Position numbers and translations under genes: made by a program
The notes under the pieces: generated by a model
What the model was told of the DNA's origin: nothing
The model's database searches: none
The model's input: the letters and a program-made list of their open reading frames with translations, nothing else
UHGV virus genome: UHGV-0104605
Length of the DNA stretch: 10,891 nucleotides
Strand: one strand, 5' to 3'
Source: a virus
Part shown: positions 1 to 10,594 of the stretch, piece after piece
Layout of the letters: every line of letters begins with the position of its first letter
Position numbering within the stretch: the first letter of the stretch is position 1

Positions 1-341
1 ACATACAGATATGGGGTTCGCCCACTATGCATGGTAAAGCTTTCAGGAAGCTCAATCTCGATAGCTGCTCGCGATGCCTGCCACGTTTGCCAGTGGCCTT
101 GAACATCGTCCATCACGTATTGACCACCAATATTACCGCTGCCAATTTCATGGTGATTTTCAGGGTAACGGATAAGGTCTGAAGATTCGCCCCCACGTCG
201 TAACCAACTCTCTTCAAACTGGCATCTGCTTTCGTCATCTTTCATAAGGCAGTCACATTCAATAAAAATCGGCTCTCCCCAAGAAGTAGAACCTCCGCTA
301 TCACACATTCCTGTGTTATTGCACTTTTGGCACTTGCTCAC
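1..341 (-). CDS. Hypothetical Cys-rich protein, nin-region position; 3' end runs off the window
   Basis: Minus-strand frame open from 341 to the window edge. Likely GTG start at 341-339 with GGAGG 5 nt upstream (read as complement of 346-350). N-terminus MSKCQKCNNTGMCDSGGSTSWGEPIFIECDCL has clustered Cys (CxxC, CDC), suggesting metal binding. Sits immediately downstream of the small membrane ORF. Family not recognised. Confidence 0.45.
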   Translation of the reverse strand, partial: MSKCQKCNNTGMCDSGGSTSWGEPIFIECDCLMKDDESRCQFEESWLRRGGESSDLIRYPENHHEIGSGNIGGQYVMDDVQGHWQTWQASRAAIEIELPESFTMHSGRTPYLY

Positions 342-353
342 ATTAACCTCCGA

Positions 354-560
354 TTAACTCACAAAACGCCACGCCATTTTTGCTACAGCGACAGGCATAA
401 CACCGATAATCACCCAGACAAATGCAGCGCCAAACAACGTATACCATGGGTCTTTACCGTCATTCACAAGACGAATGTAGCTATGCAGAACAATAAAAAA
501 CGTCAGAAGAATCCATCCAACGCCAACGCATTTGAATGCGACGAGCATAAACTCAGCCAC
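354..560 (-). CDS. Small membrane protein (68 aa, two predicted transmembrane helices)
   Basis: Matches the track ORF 354..560. GTG start with a G-rich RBS upstream (complement of about 566-574). Two hydrophobic stretches (WILLTFFIVLHSYI and FGAAFVWVIIGVMPVAVA). Located just past the terminator that follows the helicase gene. Confidence 0.5.
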   Translation of the reverse strand: MAEFMLVAFKCVGVGWILLTFFIVLHSYIRLVNDGKDPWYTLFGAAFVWVIIGVMPVAVAKMAWRFVS

Positions 561-575
561 GATTTACTCTCCCCC

Positions 576-607
576 AAATAAAAAGGCCTGCGATTACCAG
601 CAGGCCT
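576..607 (-). terminator. Intrinsic terminator downstream of the helicase gene (tR2-like position)
   Basis: Perfect 8-bp inverted repeat aggcctgc (584-591) and gcaggcct (600-607) with an 8-nt loop. On the minus strand it is followed by a U-run (plus-strand A-run 576-583). Lies 26 nt past the helicase stop codon. Confidence 0.5.
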
Positions 608-632
608 GTTATTAGCTCAGTGACGTAGATGG

Positions 633-2009
633 TCATACGTCAGCCCCTTGTGCATATCGTCTGCCACGCGCAGCGGGCGCATTTGATGCTGTGCAAATCT
701 GTCTGGCTTCATCCTGGTCACATGCAACAAAGTGTCCGTTGCAGAACCGCTGGTAAACCGTACCAAGCGAGCCAAAACGGTTTTTTGTCACAATGATTTC
801 AGCAAATGGTGCGGCGCTACTGTTCTCGTCATATACCGCTTCCCGATAGAGCATGATGATTGAGTCTGCGTCCTGTTCAATGCTTCCTGAATCACGCAAA
901 TCTGCGTTTGTCGGGCGTTTGTTTGGTCGCTTCTCAACATCGCGCGAAAGCTGACTCAGGGAGATAACAGGCGTTTTCAGGTCTTTCGCCATCGCCTTCA
1001 GGCTTCCGGAGATGTGAGCAATTGCGAGGTCGTTGCGGTCTGCTTTCGGCTTCTCAATCAGGCCAAGATAATCCGCCATGATGAGTGACAGGTTTGGATT
1101 TTCCTGTTTGTGCCGTTCTGCGATTGAGCGTATTTCTTCGACCGATAACCGCGAGGCATCGACTACCCATACATCCAAATCTGCAAGCTGACTCATGCCG
1201 TTAGCAACACGCGCCCAGCCTTCGTCATCCATCGATGCAGGATTTCGCAGCACGCTAACCGACATCCTCCCGGCGTTGGCAATGCTTCGCTCTGCAATCT
1301 GCAATGCGCTCATTTCCATCGAGAAAATCAACACTCCGCGCCGGACGTCAGAACCAGGAATAGTGCGGCTTGCAACGCCTTCGGCAATCTTCAGCGCCAG
1401 CTCGGTTTTCCCCATACCAGGACGAGCGGCGATAATCACCAGGTCTTCTGCGTTCATCCCTCCGGTGATGGCGTCAAGTTCTTCGATTCCGGTCTTCAGG
1501 GTATCTGACTCTTCTCCGTTCCTCAGACGCCTGTCAAGCGTGTCGGTGTAGTCAGTGATGATTTCCCCTAACCGTACAGGTTTAACCTCGTCACGGGGCT
1601 TTCTGATGGCTGAGAGACGCTTTACAAGCTCATCCATCGCCTGACTCGATGCGTCGATGGTTCCGCTCTGAATTGGTTCACGCATTTCATCCATGATTTC
1701 CAGCACCAGGCGGCGGTGATAGTTATCCGCGACCATTCCGGCATATCCCTTCAGGTTTGCGGCACTCGGGCAGTTCTTACTGGTCATCAGGATTGACGTG
1801 AAATGCTCCTCTCCGCACGCCTCGGCAACCATCAGCGCGTCGATTAGGTTTCTGTTTCTCGCCTGCTTACGGATAACTTCGAAGGCTTTCCTGTAGAGCG
1901 GAATTGAAAACGCTTCCGGCTCAAGCGTTGCCAGAACGTCACTGGCGGTTGGAGTTAATCCACCAATCAGCAGGCCACCGATAACGCTCGCTTCGATATC
2001 CTGTCTCAT
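633..2009 (-). CDS. Replicative DNA helicase, DnaB family (P22 gene 12-like)
   Basis: 458 aa. Walker [18 protein letters not shown], Walker B region [10 protein letters not shown], and DnaB-type motifs [12 protein letters not shown] and [16 protein letters not shown]. Start ATG overlaps the stop of the upstream O-like gene (ATGA at 2006-2009), indicating translational coupling. Confidence 0.9.
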
Positions 2010-2827
2010 GCAATCCCCCTGTCTGCAAACTTCCCTTCCCGAACTCCCGTTAACGAGTCTTCCCTCAGCAGGTAATCAAAATCTGCCGTCCAGCCCGTGT
2101 CGTTGTCTCCGAAGTAAAACGGCTTGGCCTGATGCACAAACGCCCTGACATACGCTCTGAAACCGTCCACGTTTGGCGTTTTCAGTTGCGGGATGATTTT
2201 CTTCAGGCGGCGTTTGCGTTTCTCGTTGACCGCAACAGCATGTGGAAGTCTGTCACCGACTTCGGTGTTGTAGGCGTTCAGGAAGGATTCGTAGTCGATT
2301 CGTTCTGCCTTGCGACGTTCAGGTTTAACCTGCCCATCGCCGCCCCCGTTAGGGGGTAAGGGGGTATTTGTATTTATTGTCTTTTGTATATTGTCTTTTG
2401 TGTTTAGCTGACTTGGCTTATACCCATTAGCCGACTTGGCTAATGTTTTATTAGCTGTTTTAGCTAATGTTAAGCTGTCCTGGCTAATCCACTGAGAAAC
2501 CACCTTGTTCACTCCGATTTTCACGCCATCAGCAATGAGGAATTTACGCTCGATAAGCTGGCGCTTGGCAGCGCAAACATGAGTGTGATGAATACCTGTC
2601 ATGGCTGCTATCTGCGTGTTTGTGAGTCGATCCATCGGCTTATTGAATCCGTATGTCTTGCGCATGATAGCGAGCATCACCTTCATCTGCCGGACGGTTA
2701 AATCAGCCATCAGCAGACTGTCGGTAATCTCGTTAGCAACGCGCATGAAACCATCTTCGGTATCTGCCACGCGATGCTCCACGACCTCCAGTTGAGGCCT
2801 GTAATCAGCTAACTTAACGACGCCCAT
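2006..2827 (-). CDS. Replication initiation protein: lambda O-like N-terminal domain with a different, conserved phage C-terminal domain
   Basis: 273 aa. N-terminal segment [28 protein letters not shown] resembles lambda O (RQFKVLLAILRKTYGWNKPMDRITDSQL, from memory). The middle of the gene carries the iteron origin. The C-terminal part ([13 protein letters not shown] ... [18 protein letters not shown]) differs from the lambda O C-terminus, consistent with pairing to a DnaB-type helicase rather than lambda P. Confidence 0.85.
2366..2487. other. Phage origin of replication inside the O-like gene: four about 17-bp iterons plus an adjacent AT-rich region
   Basis: Iterons at 2404-2420 (ttagctgacttggctta), 2427-2443 (ttagccgacttggctaa), 2451-2467 (ttagctgttttagctaa) and 2471-2487 (taagctgtcctggctaa), each with internal dyad TTAGC...GCTAA. 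AT-rich segment 2366-2402 contains the direct repeat ttgtcttttgt twice. The layout (iterons then AT-rich in the direction of O transcription) mirrors lambda ori. Confidence 0.65.
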
Positions 2828-2975
2828 GTTTCACTCCTGCTTTGGCTAGTCTGTAAACACCAACAAGGCGCTCTGCGAACGCCCTGTTATTTGCTGCGGC
2901 TACCACTAATCCCTCAGGTGAATCAGGGTGTCGAATCTCTTCTTTTTCCTGGTATTTCTTACGACGTTTTGTCAT
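2814..2975 (-). CDS. Small basic ORF (53 aa) between cII and the O-like gene
   Basis: ATG at 2975-2973 with GGGAG 5 nt upstream. Translates to [53 protein letters not shown]. Its 3' end overlaps the O start by about 14 nt in another frame. Below the length cut-off of the supplied ORF track. No family recognised. Confidence 0.4.
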   Translation of the reverse strand: MTKRRKKYQEKEEIRHPDSPEGLVVAAANNRAFAERLVGVYRLAKAGVKHGRR

Positions 2976-2979
2976 AATT

Positions 2980-3052
2980 ACTCCCGTGGATTGATCCAGT
3001 CTTTCTACATTAGGCCTCGAAGAATTCGCCGTTCTTCGGGGCTTTTTCTTTT
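2980..3052 (+). ncRNA. oop: oop-like antisense RNA, convergent with the 3' end of cII (5' end approximate)
   Basis: Strong plus-strand intrinsic terminator embedded in the last codons of cII, the same arrangement as lambda oop. A possible -10 (cataat, 2973-2978) lies upstream. The promoter and the 5' end are inferred, not demonstrated. Confidence 0.45.
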
Positions 3053-3288
3053 GTCAGCATTCTGGCTACTTGCTTAGCCAGTTCCGCCAACTCCTCGTCT
3101 TCAACACCCCATTCAAGAACAGCCAGAAGCATTCCCATTTTGGGGATGAAGCTGTCTTTCCATCGCGAAATTTGCGATTCATTAACCCCTAACGCGTCGG
3201 CAACCTTTCGCTGACCACGTACAGCAATTCGATTCAGGATGTTGCTTGTAATTGCATTCGCTTTCTTGCGAGTACTTGTAAGTTGCAT
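3010..3288 (-). CDS. cII: cII-family transcriptional activator (P22 C1-like)
   Basis: 92 aa from ATG 3288 (AAGGA RBS upstream). The track ORF 3010..3348 is trimmed to this start. Motif GVNESQISRWKDSFIPKMGMLLAVLEWGV matches the cII helix-turn-helix and tetramerisation region (lambda GVDKSQISRWKRDWIPKFSMLLAVLEWGV, from memory). Sits between the Cro-proximal nutR/tR1 and the replication genes. Confidence 0.85.
   Translation of the reverse strand: MQLTSTRKKANAITSNILNRIAVRGQRKVADALGVNESQISRWKDSFIPKMGMLLAVLEWGVEDEELAELAKQVARMLTKEKAPKNGEFFEA
3014..3052 (+). terminator. Rho-independent terminator on the plus strand (oop-type)
   Basis: Stem gcctcgaagaa (3014-3024), loop ttcgccg, stem ttcttcggggc (3032-3042), followed by tttttctttt (3043-3052). 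On the minus strand the same region has no U-tract, so it should not terminate the cII-O transcript. Confidence 0.7.
3242..3255 (+). promoter_or_regulatory. cII-binding site of a pRE-like promoter (TTGC-N6-TTGC), directed toward cI
   Basis: ttgcttgtaattgc read directly on the plus strand inside the 5' part of the cII coding region. In lambdoid phages cII binds TTGC-N6-TTGC flanking the -35 of pRE at this position. The -10 is not confidently placed. Confidence 0.55.
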
Positions 3289-3299
3289 ATGTAAGTATT

Positions 3300-3399
3300 T
3301 CCTTAGATAACAATTGATTGAATGTATGCAAATAAATGCATACACCATAGGTGTGGTTTAATTTGATGCCCTTTTTCAGGGCTGGGATGTGTAAGAGCG
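3300..3399 (-). promoter_or_regulatory. nutR (boxA and boxB) and tR1 region between cro and cII
   Basis: On the minus strand, boxA CGCTCTTA (complement of 3392-3399) and boxB GCCCTGAAAAAGGGC (complement of 3368-3382) lie immediately after the cro stop. The following segment (aaaccacacctatggtgtatgcatttatttgcatacattcaatcaattg) matches the lambda tR1 region as I recall it. Confidence 0.8.
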
Positions 3400-3407
3400 G
3401 GAATGTC

Positions 3408-4760
<1,353 letters not shown>

Positions 4761-4809
4761 TCCCCACCTCAATCTCGATAACCAAAAACAAACTATTTTT
4801 CATTTAAAA

Positions 4810-4885
4810 ACAATGGAGTTTGTTTTTCACGCCCCTTTTTACAATATTTCTTGTTTACAACATACAATCTTTCTTGTAATTTTAA
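4810..4885 (+). promoter_or_regulatory. Left operator OL1-3 and pL, 434 type
   Basis: Three ACAA-N6-TTGT sites at 4810-4823 (acaatggagtttgt), 4841-4854 (acaatatttcttgt) and 4864-4877 (acaatctttcttgt). A plausible -35/-10 pair (tttaca about 4854-4859, taattt about 4877-4882) overlaps the sites and is oriented toward N. Confidence 0.75.
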
Positions 4886-4921
4886 GCCATCAGCAGGACG
4901 CACTGACCACCATGAAGGTGA

Positions 4922-4952
4922 GGCTCTTAAAAATTAAGCCCTGAAGAAGGGC
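4922..4952 (+). promoter_or_regulatory. nutL (boxA-like element and boxB hairpin)
   Basis: ggctctta (4922-4929), a 7/8 match to boxA CGCTCTTA, followed by boxB gccctgaagaagggc (4938-4952). The flanking sequence matches lambda nutL as I recall it, with one possible substitution in boxA. Confidence 0.85.
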
Positions 4953-5220
4953 AGCATTCAAAGCAGAAGGCTTTGGGGTGTGGTGAAGCCAGCTAGTCAC
5001 TGGCAAGTGCTTACCTACTGTTGAGCGGTGAAGCGCTCCCAACGCTAGCAATAGCGTGGACGAGATGGGGAGCCGCGGGCGATAAGGCCGCCATAACGCG
5101 CACGTTGTCGCATGGAAAAATCGCTGGGGTGCCGGTTATACCCCTCCGAATGAGACTCAACAAGCTGGAGCTAGACTACCAGCCACCACACCACCAAAGC
5201 TAACTGACAGGAGAATACAG

Positions 5221-5547
5221 ATGGATGCACAAACACGCCGCCGCGAACGTCGCGCAGAGAAACAGGCTCAATGGAAAGCAGCAAATCCCCTGTTGGTTGG
5301 GGTAAGCGCAAAACCAGTTAACCGCCCTATTCTCTCGCTGAATCGCAAACCGAAATCACGAGTAGAAAGCGCACTGAATCCGATAGACCTTACGGTACTG
5401 GCTGAATACCACGAACAGATTGAAAGCAACCTGCAACGTATTGAGCGCAAGAATCAGCGCACATGGTACAGCAAGCCACGCAGTGAAATGGGGGTGACTT
5501 GTGTAGGTCGCCAGAAAATGAAATTAGGCAGCAAACCACTTATTTGA
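5221..5547 (+). CDS. N: Antitermination protein N, lambda type
   Basis: 108 aa. MDAQTRRRERRAEKQAQWKAANPLLVGVSAKPVNRPILSLNRKPKSRVESALNPIDLTVLAEYH matches lambda N including the Arg-rich boxB-binding motif; the C-terminal 25 aa or so differ at several positions. RBS AGGAGA 6 nt upstream. Preceded by a roughly 270-nt leader after nutL. Confidence 0.92.
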   Translation: MDAQTRRRERRAEKQAQWKAANPLLVGVSAKPVNRPILSLNRKPKSRVESALNPIDLTVLAEYHEQIESNLQRIERKNQRTWYSKPRSEMGVTCVGRQKMKLGSKPLI

Positions 5548-7111: not shown

Positions 7112-8010
7112 GCAATATCGTTGAATTCGTTAAACAGCAGGAGCAGTTATTCTGCGGAGCATTGACTGAACAGACGGTGACATGGGCTAAGGAAAGCCAG
7201 TTTGCAATTCAGTATTTCCAGAAAAACGATTACCTGGCTAAAACAGCACTGGCAAATCCAACCAGCGCACAGAACGCCATCATCAATGTTGCGGCGATCG
7301 GCATCACCTTAAACCCGGCCAGCAAACTGGCTTATCTGGTTCCTCGCGACGGCATGGTGTGCCTTGATATCAGTTACATGGGATTACTTCATCTTGCGCA
7401 ATCGACAGGATCAATTAAGTGGGGGCAATGCAAACTGGTGTACTCAAACGACACCTATGAATCAAATGGCCTTGATTCAGCACCAACCCACAAATACAAC
7501 GCATTTGGTGAGCGAGGCTCTATTGTTGGAGGTTATTGCACGGTTAAAACAGCAGATGGTGACTACCTGACTGAAGAAATGAGTCTGGCAGAAATTAAAG
7601 CTGTGGAAGCAACGAGCAAGGCAAAGAATGGACCGTGGAAAACATTCTGGGAAGAGATGGCGCGTAAAACAATAGTTAAACGCGCCAGCAAATACTGGCC
7701 TAAAGCCCAGCGACTGGATAATGCCATTCACCTGCTTAACGAAGATGAAGGTATGCATCAGGAACCAGTTATGCCGCACAAATCAGAGGAAGATATCCGC
7801 GAAGATGAACGGAAACGCCAGCAGGAAATAATGGATAAAGCACAACTTCTTTGCGATGAAATGGCTCAGGCAGAAAACATGGATGATTTGAAGCGATATT
7901 TTGCAGAAGCATATCGCCTGACAGCTGGAATGAAATTGCAGCAGAACGTACAAGCCATTTACGCAGAATGCAAAGCGAAACTGGAGGTTGCCAGTGAGCA
8001 AACTGTATGA
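7108..8010 (+). CDS. recT: RecT-family single-strand annealing protein (recombinase)
   Basis: 300 aa. Segment NGPWKTFWEEMARKTIVKRASKYWP matches the conserved RecT core (Rac RecT NGPWVTHWEEMAKKTAIRRLFKYLP, from memory). RBS GGAGAAG upstream. Confidence 0.85.
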   Translation: MSNIVEFVKQQEQLFCGALTEQTVTWAKESQFAIQYFQKNDYLAKTALANPTSAQNAIINVAAIGITLNPASKLAYLVPRDGMVCLDISYMGLLHLAQSTGSIKWGQCKLVYSNDTYESNGLDSAPTHKYNAFGERGSIVGGYCTVKTADGDYLTEEMSLAEIKAVEATSKAKNGPWKTFWEEMARKTIVKRASKYWPKAQRLDNAIHLLNEDEGMHQEPVMPHKSEEDIREDERKRQQEIMDKAQLLCDEMAQAENMDDLKRYFAEAYRLTAGMKLQQNVQAIYAECKAKLEVASEQTV

Positions 8011-8818: not shown

Positions 8819-8983
8819 ATGAGAGGACTTGCATACAATCCCGGCATTCTTCCGGCAGAAATGATTATTCGCCAACGCGTAAAGCCAATGCCATCAAGAG
8901 AGGAATTGCTTAAGAGAAATTCTTTTCCATCAGTAAATCAAAACAAATATCTGAATGCAATGTGGCGGAGTGGGAAGAAATGA
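8819..8983 (+). CDS. Small hypothetical protein (54 aa)
   Basis: RBS AAGAGGAA then ATG 8819. The stop overlaps the next gene's ATG (ATGA at 8980-8983). Below the track cut-off. Confidence 0.4.
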
Positions 8984-9456
8984 AACAAATGACACTAATT
9001 GAGATGGATGGATTTCTGAAAGGTAAATGCATCCCAAGTGATTTAAAGGTTAACGAAACAAACGCTGAATATCTTGTCCGTAAGTTCGGTGAACTTGAAT
9101 CAAAACTGGAAACGGCGTTGCGGGAGTGTCGTTCTGCTGGAATCACGATTGATAACCTTGAGGCTAAATGCGCGAAGATGGCTGCTGAAAATACCTCACT
9201 TAAGCAATCTGAGAAGGAATTTAATGACTTTTGTCGTGAGGAGTTTAGCGAATGGGAAGATGATGTTACTGAAACCCCAGCCACCGACGCTTTCCTAGCT
9301 GAAGTTCGAGCGCAGGGCGTGGATATGGCTCGCAACGCGATGATTGATTTTTTTGATGGTGAAGTTGGGCCAAACAAGAACGTTCCGGGGCTGATTAGAG
9401 GCGCAGAGATATGCGTAAGTATTGCTGCCCAGCTTCGTAAAGGAGGCAACCAGTGA
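8980..9456 (+). CDS. Ead/Ea22-like modular protein, paralogue 1
   Basis: ATG 8980 (the track starts at GTG 8962). Shares segments with paralogue 2: [17 protein letters not shown] and a QLRKG C-terminus. Predicted coiled-coil N-terminal part. Confidence 0.6.
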
Positions 9457-10151
9457 GCGAAATTAACTATAAAGAACTGCGCGAGGCGGCGAAACAGGCA
9501 ACGCAAGATGAATGGGTAGCATATATTTTGCCGGGTCATAACGGCATTTATCCTGCGCGCACGTCTGAGGGTAGGCATTGCGGATACTTTATTGACTGGC
9601 CTGGCGTCTGTCAGGGGCGGGAGAGCATCAGCATGAGCATCAGAACCTACGCAGTGAATTGCAATGACGCATGGCTAAACACCGAAGGTGATGACATCTC
9701 CGGCTCATACGTTAAGTACAAAGACCATCAGGAAGTGGTTGCCGCTCTTGAGGCCAAGTGTGCGGCGCTGGCAGCGGAGAGTTCGGGGATGAAGAAGTTC
9801 TGCAAAGACGCTGCATTCGATGCCGATTACGAAGCAGAGCTAGGTATGGAGCGTGGTGGATTCAGTGATGCGCTTAACGAAATCAAAACCCCAGCCACCG
9901 ATGCTTTTCTAGCTGAAGTGAAGACTGAAGCACGCAAGGAAGGCGCTTATTTTGTGGCGAACAGAATGTTGGCAGCCTGGAAAGCTGGTTTTATTGATGA
10001 TACTGCGAAGAACGCCGCGGATATTGCCCGGATGATCCTTACCTCTACTGAGTTTATGGCTAATGCGCCGGAAGGCGATTTTGATCGCTCATTCTCTGAT
10101 GGCGTTCTCGAAGATATCGCCGAACAGCTTCGTAAAGGAGTCATCCAATGA
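9453..10151 (+). CDS. Ead/Ea22-like modular protein, paralogue 2
   Basis: GTG start overlapping the previous stop (GTGA), with AAAGGAGG upstream. N-terminus [15 protein letters not shown] parallels paralogue 3 (MSKIDYQKLREIAEK). Internal modules are shared with paralogue 1. Confidence 0.65.
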   Translation: MSEINYKELREAAKQATQDEWVAYILPGHNGIYPARTSEGRHCGYFIDWPGVCQGRESISMSIRTYAVNCNDAWLNTEGDDISGSYVKYKDHQEVVAALEAKCAALAAESSGMKKFCKDAAFDADYEAELGMERGGFSDALNEIKTPATDAFLAEVKTEARKEGAYFVANRMLAAWKAGFIDDTAKNAADIARMILTSTEFMANAPEGDFDRSFSDGVLEDIAEQLRKGVIQ

Positions 10152-10594
10152 GCAAGATTGATTATCAAAAGCTTCGTGAAATCGCTGAAAAAACAAAAAT
10201 TGCTGGTGAAGCACCTGTAATGCCTTTCGATCAGCGAATTAATGCGCTTAACGATTTTATGAAGCACTTTTCGCCAGATATCGCGCTGGCATTGTTGGAT
10301 GAATGGGAAAGAAACCAGCAATACATAAAACGCCGCGATCAGGAGAACGAGGATATTGCGCTAACGGTAGGGAAGCTGCGCGTTGAGCTTGAGGCAGAAA
10401 AACAGCGGGCAAAGGATCTATTTATGGAAAATGCCCGGCTTAAGTCAGGTATAGCCCGTCTGATACACCTCGGTATTCGATATGCAGATGTTGAGGTCAT
10501 GAGAATTGCTGGAGATGCCCAGCTTTCTACCCCATGCACTGACAGCATCATAAACAGCATTGCAACAGGCATTCGCATCAAAGGAGGTGAGTAA
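10148..10594 (+). CDS. Ead/Ea22-like modular protein, paralogue 3
   Basis: ATG overlaps the previous stop (ATGA), with AAAGGAG upstream. Shares the N-terminal module with paralogue 2. Coiled-coil-like middle (ELEAEKQRAKDLFMENARLK). Confidence 0.6.
   Translation: MSKIDYQKLREIAEKTKIAGEAPVMPFDQRINALNDFMKHFSPDIALALLDEWERNQQYIKRRDQENEDIALTVGKLRVELEAEKQRAKDLFMENARLKSGIARLIHLGIRYADVEVMRIAGDAQLSTPCTDSIINSIATGIRIKGGE

Follow-up and report, generated by a model that had tools for sequence, protein, structure and literature searches.

What occupies the short interval between the replicative helicase gene and ninB in a lambdoid prophage, and are the two small genes found there a toxin and its regulator or ordinary accessory genes? 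The question is raised by the stretch of DNA analysed here (the window), 10,891 nucleotides of the virus genome UHGV-0104605. Downstream of the helicase gene, on the minus strand, lie a hairpin, an open reading frame (ORF) for a two-helix membrane protein of 68 residues, a gap of 12 nucleotides and a Cys-rich ORF that crosses the window edge.

The window corresponds to the immunity and early part of a lambdoid prophage, and its features are collected in Table 1. Its minus strand carries the early-right operon, in the order cro, cII, an O-like gene and the DnaB-type helicase gene. A prophage of Escherichia coli EH01-18-04-A is 100% identical to the window's first 700 bases, and there the helicase gene is followed by two genes annotated as 'hypothetical' and then by ninB, ninE, ninF, ninG, ninH, a phosphatase gene and Q. 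The region under study opens the nin (N-independence) region of the prophage, which is a lambda/P22 hybrid. An earlier, sequence-only reading had placed the two genes where the nin genes would otherwise stand; in EH01-18-04-A the nin genes follow them at once. Parts of the 700-nt query are present in 2046 of 5426 complete E. coli genomes. An Rfam scan of positions 1..1200 returned no match, and svsR, a small RNA of lambdoid prophages, was considered as an occupant of the region and rejected, since it maps to the 3′ end of cI.

Table 1. Features of the window, with strand and the basis of each assignment
Feature	Position	Strand	Basis
Cys-rich mosaic protein gene, first 113 of 130 codons in the window	1..341	-	Translation; GTG start at 341
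Segment encoding the putative CxxC-x21-CxC knuckle, residues 4–31	249..332	-	Cys conservation in homologous modules
Shine–Dalgarno GGAGG, 5 nt before the GTG of the Cys-rich gene	347..351	-	Sequence
Gene for 68-residue two-helix inner-membrane protein (phrog_1165), GTG start	354..560	-	Profile match, homologues, dN/dS, AlphaFold2
ninA, 27-residue hydrophobic ORF spanning tR2	553..636	-	Sequence; same ORF annotated ninA in HK620, HK630 and SPN9CC
Shine–Dalgarno GGGGGAGAG of the 68-codon ORF	567..575	-	Sequence; identical to lambda element
Intrinsic terminator tR2	576..607	-	Terminator scan; lambda identity; HK620 annotation
DnaB-type replicative helicase gene, upstream neighbour of the studied region	633..2009	-	ORF list; 'replicative DNA helicase' in the 100% identical genome
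Lambda-type boxB of nutR, early-right transcript	3368..3382	-	Exact match to GCCCTGAAAAAGGGC; none expected by chance
cI-like repressor gene	3727-4359	+	ORF list
boxB of nutL	4938-4952		Exact boxB sequence
Antitermination protein N gene	5221..5547	+	Translation begins MDAQTRRRERRAEKQAQWKAANPLL; 'antitermination protein N' in the source genome

The hairpin behind the helicase gene has the form AGGCCTGC-TGGTAATC-GCAGGCCT followed by the T-tract TTTTTATTT. Its stem comprises 8 bp, six of them G–C pairs (607..600 with 591..584), the loop is 8 nt long, the T-tract occupies 583..576, and the predicted energy of the fold is −15.2 kcal/mol. Comparison with the ren–ninB spacer of lambda (40.6 kb) reveals identity at 32 of 32 bases over the hairpin and T-tract, and the HK620 record labels the homologous element 'terminator tR2'. 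The site also lies between the replication genes and ninB, as it does in lambda. We identify this predicted structure, previously described as 'tR2-like', as tR2 itself. Exact copies are present in 86 of the loci fetched, and in the allele alignment the element is invariant even beside strongly diverged flanking genes. In lambda, tR2 stops about 90% of transcripts in vivo, an efficiency of ~0.9 (PMC4824070).

The hairpin had been described simply as lying ahead of the membrane protein gene. It occupies no non-coding gap but sits within an ORF, ninA, which was absent from the earlier description. The ATG of ninA overlaps the stop codon of the helicase gene (ATGA), and its TGA end overlaps the start of the 68-codon ORF by 8 nt. 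The 'ninA' labels in deposited records were considered as a name for the 68-codon ORF and rejected, because the records show a 27-residue ORF that shares only this 8-nt overlap with the tblastn match. The NinA peptide encoded here differs from that of HK620 at a few positions. The alignment places an exact mosaic junction at the ninA ATG, with at least seven different genes found upstream of it. In HK022-type phages the hairpin is kept and the ninA start is not, and at one locus (L032) the tR2 loop is inverted with the stem intact and the NinA peptide altered; these cases suggest that it is the RNA structure, rather than the NinA peptide, that is constrained. The NinA start site in lambda was found by experiment to be 'not weak', and NinA translation through tR2 cuts termination there by only ~10% (PMC4824070). 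We rejected ninA translation through tR2 as a new control device for that reason, the effect having already been measured and being this small.

The segment shares with lambda the 32-nt hairpin and T-tract, the Shine–Dalgarno sequence, the ATGA-coupled 27-residue ORF and the location after the replication genes; tR2 with ninA is annotated in HK620 and P22-like phages as well. It departs from lambda on either side. The upstream gene is ren in lambda and the DnaB-type helicase gene here, and the Shine–Dalgarno sequence GGGGGAGAG that follows tR2 belongs in lambda to ninB, whereas here two extra genes intervene.

Both of these genes have the GGAGG-type ribosome-binding sites that had been proposed for them, GGGGGAGAG before the GTG at 560 and GGAGG before the GTG at 341. 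A scan of positions 1..2200 on both strands against the sigma-70 consensus gave no promoter-like site. Taken with the position of tR2, the presence of an N gene and the nut boxB sequences, this indicates that the two are most likely N-dependent delayed-early accessory genes. The junctions along the gene chain are, in order, ATGA, an 8-nt overlap, a 12-nt gap and a 3-nt gap, in agreement with the tight packing described for nin genes (PMC8022706). In the scheme that we propose, a transcript from the early-right promoter would pass through the helicase gene and reach tR2 embedded in ninA, beyond which only RNA polymerase modified by N at nutR would continue efficiently. Since their stops and starts overlap or are closely spaced, the chained genes would be translated as one delayed-early block during lytic growth, and not from the repressed prophage.

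The product of the first gene belongs to phrog_1165, to whose profile positions 1–68 its residues 1–68 align with an E-value of 5.2e-39. It is a typical member, sharing its length, its two helices and its slot after the replication genes with HK022 gp58, orf70 of Stx2 phage 86 and Kapi1_027. A search of 5.8 billion proteins yielded 61 relatives, nearly all of them 68 residues long and from Escherichia and Salmonella, and a profile search against 1.84 billion representatives recovered no more than 27 matches, some of 60–66 residues, the remote ones lying in other genomic contexts. Conserved positions are Trp16, the Lys36-Asp37 loop, Gly53, Pro56-Val57, Lys61 and Trp64. The relatives of 60–66 residues, all of which fall within phrog_1165, retain Trp16, an N-x-G-x-D-P turn, Trp49, Gly53, Pro56-Val57, Lys61 and Trp64. 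The family is a narrow orphan one, its length held at 60–68 residues and its sequence under purifying selection.

Evidence for this selection comes from the alleles. Between the two deep alleles, dS over codons 2–48 is saturated and dN/dS is 0.16–0.21. Codons 49–68 are nearly identical in DNA while codons 2–48 have diverged, which points to a mosaic joint inside the gene. Between some pairs of close alleles non-synonymous changes exceed synonymous ones, so that constraint on the gene may be relaxed. These data bear on the proposal that the 68-codon ORF is a chance open frame in a spacer, the real feature being only the terminator or an 84-residue antisense ORF (327..581, plus strand). The HK620 and H-19B genomes were deposited with the ORF unannotated, the antisense frame is open in most alleles and an allele with a nonsense codon exists, all as that proposal would have it. 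Against it, the length is fixed at 68 codons, the start and the Shine–Dalgarno sequence are kept in 47 of 48 distinct sequences, dN/dS is ~0.2 with dS saturated, and remote relatives of 60–66 residues carry the same motif in other genomic contexts; the antisense frame, for its part, is interrupted in several alleles and makes no sense as part of an operon. A chance frame is barely credible on this evidence.

The sequence-only reading of the first gene as encoding a membrane protein with two helices is borne out by structure prediction. The AlphaFold2 model of the monomer is a helical hairpin (helices 2–33 and 38–67) with a mean pLDDT of 90.1, and the GenBank record of the Kapi1 homologue gives DeepTMHMM helices at 11–25 and 46–59. 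The hairpin is predicted to lie almost wholly in the membrane. Its charged residues include Lys10, Lys61 and Arg65, set against a net charge of −1 on the turn; together with hydropathy and the monomer model, the positive-inside rule suggests that the N- and C-termini are cytoplasmic and that a short turn faces the periplasm. Comparison of the model with the PDB using Foldseek returned generic helical hairpins only, at E-values above 4 (best ~5).

Class II holins and pinholins, such as phage 21 S68, likewise have two transmembrane helices in about 68 residues, and the short basic C-terminal tail would also suit a pore-former or holin-like factor that sets the timing of lysis. The setting and the details of the protein argue otherwise. 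The gene belongs to the early operon, outside the lysis cassette and some 4 kb upstream of the phage's own holin–endolysin (holin, lysozyme) genes. It has a single GTG start with no dual-start motif, and the tail, KMAWRFVS, is only 8 residues long with a charge of +2. No Pfam holin family matches the protein, and the Foldseek search produced nothing better than E ~5. We regard a holin-like function as highly improbable.

Wider searches were similarly unproductive. When the membrane protein and the Cys-rich protein were scanned against Pfam, NCBIfam and PADLOC, the outcome was noise only, namely T4SS_pilin (E = 0.027) and an antiporter subunit G model (E = 0.019), both far below the cut-offs, and full-text literature searches on peptide motifs and family names gave nothing relevant. 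The sequence-only reading had allowed that the second gene might prove to be a known Nin protein and the membrane ORF unconserved; in the event neither protein matched the Nin models of Pfam and NCBIfam (NinB, D, E, F, G, H and X) at E-values up to 10, and the membrane ORF is conserved. The description of the sequence is thus confirmed, and it survives the refuting condition that had been set for it.

An allele with TGA at codon 15 of the membrane protein gene is found in H-19B and in six tabulated loci, and lambda does without the gene. We infer from the circulation of this nonsense allele and from the example of lambda that the gene is dispensable. The nin genes have been described as a large, mosaic pool that is non-essential in the laboratory (PMC5630979; PMC8022706).

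The Cys-rich gene, of which the window holds 113 codons, can be completed from the 100% identical source, where it comprises 130 codons (L005 7360-7752) and ninB begins 3 nt later. In the PGAP annotation of the source genome the gene is given as 98 residues from an internal ATG. We favour the GTG at 341, because coding for the putative knuckle is conserved upstream of PGAP's start and because GGAGG lies 5 nt before the GTG. The protein matches phrog_343 (E = 1e-20), and a protein 98% identical to it (P0062) carries the Pfam domain PF26207 (Phage_phiTE_015), for which precomputed matches are listed for about 115 relatives. Our local Pfam scan gave no PF26207 match for the Cys-rich protein, and the same was true of proteins that are listed with PF26207. 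By these matches the protein is assigned to PF26207/phrog_343, a family built from interchangeable cassettes.

The constant pieces of the family are MDESRKQFEE, WQxWQASRAAIE and IRAAGxKVK, and two variable cassettes lie between them. In the 67 genes that could be parsed there are about five types of first cassette and six of second, in 26 combinations. The protein encoded here shares the SRxQFE helix, the WxxWQASRAAIE helix and the IRAAGxKVK tail with family members such as HK022 gp59 and gp32 of Salmonella phage Skate. Its combination of cassettes is rare, and it has in addition an N-terminal four-Cys knuckle that most members lack.

This putative knuckle had been noticed as a cluster of Cys residues. 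Only Cys4, Cys7, Cys29 and Cys31 are conserved, in the modules of E. coli, Aeromonas and Pseudomonas phages; Cys13 and Cys40 are not. The knuckle is an N-terminal addition that 8 of 90 related loci have, and the majority of PF26207 genes in this slot lack the module. With 60–67% identity the module heads otherwise unrelated proteins, of 180 residues in Seuratvirus and of 425 residues in Pseudomonas phage LSL4. To judge from this distribution, the knuckle is optional and mobile. Its first half reads C-QK-C-NNTG, recalling the CxxCxGxG motifs of DnaJ-type proteins; it differs from these in having a single CxxC and a single CxC without any repeat, and no profile matches it significantly. A relative gave a weak match (E = 0.057) to the Cys-rich C-terminal domain of GRXCR1/2. 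The AlphaFold2 model of the whole protein is poor (pLDDT 59.7, and below 50 for residues 1–35, the putative zinc knuckle). Sequence searches of the PDB with the PF26207 alignment and with the knuckle alone found no relative, and a Foldseek comparison of the poor model with viral models returned only a relative by sequence, from phage Skate.

Do the two genes form a pair? The 12-nt gap between them was correctly noted from the sequence, and a PF26207-type gene lies directly after the membrane protein gene, at fixed spacing, in 68 of 90 related loci, although the 80 IMG/VR loci are the best-scoring ones and make this a biased sample. Approached from the PF26207 side, the same adjacency is found in Cronobacter prophages and in further E. 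coli prophages. Five loci that encode distant relatives of the membrane protein were informative; four of them have a PF26207 gene within 1.2 kb, which in one is directly adjacent. Neither order nor spacing is constant among the distant loci: the PF26207 gene of L098 lies upstream, and that of L091 is separated by a distance of four genes. Each gene is also found without the other. In 14 of the 90 loci, including HK620, HK630 and Kapi1, the membrane protein gene is followed directly by ninB with no partner; conversely, Skate, Seuratvirus and locus L111 have PF26207 genes but no membrane gene. Six further loci have a different membrane protein first and a PF26207-like match ~0.7 kb downstream. 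The pairing is thus frequent and separable in both directions, and co-occurrence is not obligate. The frequent adjacency could reflect a functional pair rather than a shared history, and conserved gene ends serving as recombination joints could explain the linkage. A functional pair of these genes is possible on the comparative evidence.

One form of such a pair would be a dedicated two-gene module in which the 68-residue protein is a toxic or exclusion membrane effector that its zinc-binding neighbour regulates or neutralises. A small protein with two transmembrane helices fits this description, as do the fixed spacing in the 68 loci and in Cronobacter prophages and the proximity of a PF26207 gene in four of the five distant loci. 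T4 Imm, HK97 gp15 and P22 SieA (PMC10883804) are likewise phage proteins of small size, helical and embedded in the membrane, with little soluble mass, although they have no sequence or profile similarity to the protein studied here. HK97 gp15 and P22 SieA are, moreover, expressed from the prophage, whereas the 68-codon gene lies behind tR2 in a lytic early operon; a gene behind a strong terminator is the opposite of what is expected of an exclusion gene active in the lysogen, and the sigma-70 scan offers no promoter for prophage expression. The zinc knuckle, as a mobile module confined to 8 of the 90 loci, makes a poor candidate for a regulator, and a zinc-dependent one is unlikely. The 14 loci in which ninB directly follows the membrane gene have no partner to supply regulation, and the PF26207 genes of Skate, Seuratvirus and L111 have no membrane gene to regulate. 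A nonsense allele of the supposed toxin circulates, and neither PADLOC nor Pfam nor NCBIfam gave a defence or toxin match. A zinc module controlling a toxin or exclusion role is not what the comparative data favour. The functional interpretation is speculative and agrees with these data only in part, and we consider this dedicated module quite unlikely.

A functional pair might also be built without the knuckle. The PF26207 cassettes would then set specificity for a protein of the host or of a rival phage, and the hairpin would anchor the partner or transmit its signal, the zinc knuckle being irrelevant to the pairing. Recurrence of the two genes in Escherichia, Salmonella and Cronobacter, and in part among distant relatives, is in keeping with this, and combinatorial exchange of cassettes is typical of proteins under diversifying pressure. 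The variable order and spacing at L098 and L091 and the occurrence of each gene alone weigh on the other side, as does the lack of any visible correspondence between cassette type and the two deep alleles of the membrane gene; recombination at conserved gene ends could moreover account for the linkage. We judge such a pair unlikely. Its more elaborate version, a two-part lytic-phase module in which the cassettes choose a target in host defence or a rival phage, the hairpin acts at the membrane and the specificities are swapped among lambdoid phages by recombination at conserved gene ends, would be an improbable extension.

The reading that we prefer is that the tR2/ninA segment of lambda is followed in this prophage by two accessory nin-region genes that are N-dependent, dispensable and not an obligate toxin–regulator pair, and we put the probability of this account as a whole at roughly 0.7. 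Relative to lambda, the two genes are inserted between tR2 and ninB, and each would provide a dispensable accessory function. Under this account the 68-residue hairpin may act through intramembrane contacts with a membrane protein of the host or of the phage. A more specific role, such as blocking the entry of later DNA or tuning the physiology of the envelope, is offered tentatively and is clearly less probable than not.

Because nin genes are already known as a large, mosaic and non-essential pool (PMC5630979; PMC8022706), the locus is an ordinary instance of its kind: both genes are ordinary accessory genes of the nin region, from catalogued families, with no demonstrated toxin–regulator pair, and nothing suggests a new type of mechanism. 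Both families are also present in Stx-converting phages, and should the membrane protein or its cassette partner turn out to influence exclusion, the evasion of defence or induction, that would be relevant to many pathogenic strains. The analysis also improves the annotation. Lambda tR2 and ninA are identified in this prophage, a likely reading of 130 residues is restored for a gene that PGAP shortens to 98, and the unannotated gap in HK620 and H-19B is seen to hold a conserved gene for a small membrane protein.

The gene for the 68-aa two-helix membrane protein is itself a mosaic, with a joint at codons 48/49. Over codons 1–48, synonymous divergence between alleles is saturated, and the final 20 codons are nearly identical at the DNA level; in the SPN9CC allele, the pattern is reversed relative to this joint. 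In one allele, found in phage H-19B, in locus L079 and in five similar IMG/VR loci, codon 15 has changed from GGA to an in-frame TGA, from which we conclude that the gene has been inactivated in an Stx1-phage lineage. In the original GenBank records of HK620 and H-19B, the 68-aa ORF is not annotated; the interval that holds it, bounded on one side by ninA or ren and on the other by the following gene, has the look of a spacer. An antisense ORF of 84 aa facing the membrane gene is open in most alleles and interrupted in several, and probably arises incidentally from the codons that make up the hydrophobic gene.

Upstream, the helicase stop and the ninA start are coupled by ATGA, and the 3′ end of ninA, a 27-aa hydrophobic ORF spanning the tR2 terminator hairpin, overlaps the start of the next ORF by 8 nt. 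The ninA ATG is exactly the point at which the mosaic is joined, and the genes found upstream of it are of at least seven kinds. In one comparison locus (L032), the tR2 loop is inverted, reading GATTACCT in place of TGGTAATC, with the hairpin stem unbroken and the NinA peptide altered; in another (L037), the hairpin is partly duplicated.

The downstream Cys-rich gene, of the PF26207 family, is built of two variable cassettes set between constant linkers. These occur in 26 combinations among 67 genes, and the downstream genes of the 90 related loci (L001–L090) encode 57 distinct proteins. In the source genome, the RefSeq (PGAP pipeline) start is an internal ATG giving a protein of 98 aa, as against the longer frame listed in the table, and the four-Cys knuckle is lost from this call, although a GGAGG and a GTG of its own precede it. 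The same 30-residue knuckle is also N-terminal in otherwise unrelated proteins of Seuratvirus coliphages and Pseudomonas phage LSL4, and so behaves like a mobile N-terminal module. In six loci (L029, L033, L039 and L040 among them), the 68-aa gene is followed after approximately 13 nt by a gene for another protein, of 108 aa and with a hydrophobic helix at its N-terminus (MADWQIPIIILAGASLVAGFILL...), and a PF26207-like match lies some 0.7 kb downstream.

Features in the window and in comparison loci (L-numbers)
Feature	Sequence	Position	Strand	Remark
Cys-rich gene	window	1–341	-	PF26207
Antisense ORF	window	327–581	+	84 aa
Membrane gene	window	354–560	-	68 aa
ninA	window	553–636	-	27 aa
Hybrid region	window	2006–5547		
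Three consecutive ORFs	window	8962–10594	+	164, 232 and 148 aa; early-left region
Unannotated 68-aa ORF	L007 (HK620)	2501–2707		
Unannotated 68-aa ORF	L002 (H-19B)	3077–3283		
Nonsense allele	L002 (H-19B)	~3119–3121		codon 15 TGA
Inverted tR2 loop	L032	~2954–2985		
Cys-rich gene, longer frame	L005 (source genome)	7360–7752		
Cys-rich gene, PGAP call	L005 (source genome)	7456–7752		98 aa
Knuckle-headed protein	L092	1495–2037		
Knuckle-headed protein	L093	1495–2034		
Knuckle-headed protein	L094	1468–2745		

The phage is a hybrid: its N gene and nut sites are of the lambda type, whereas its replication genes, encoding a replication protein and a DnaB-type helicase, are closer to those of P22-like phages than to lambda O and P. 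In the early-left region, the 164- and 232-aa ORFs have in common an 11-residue motif and, at the C-terminus, QLRKG; they may be Ea22-like genes that arose by duplication or are mosaic.
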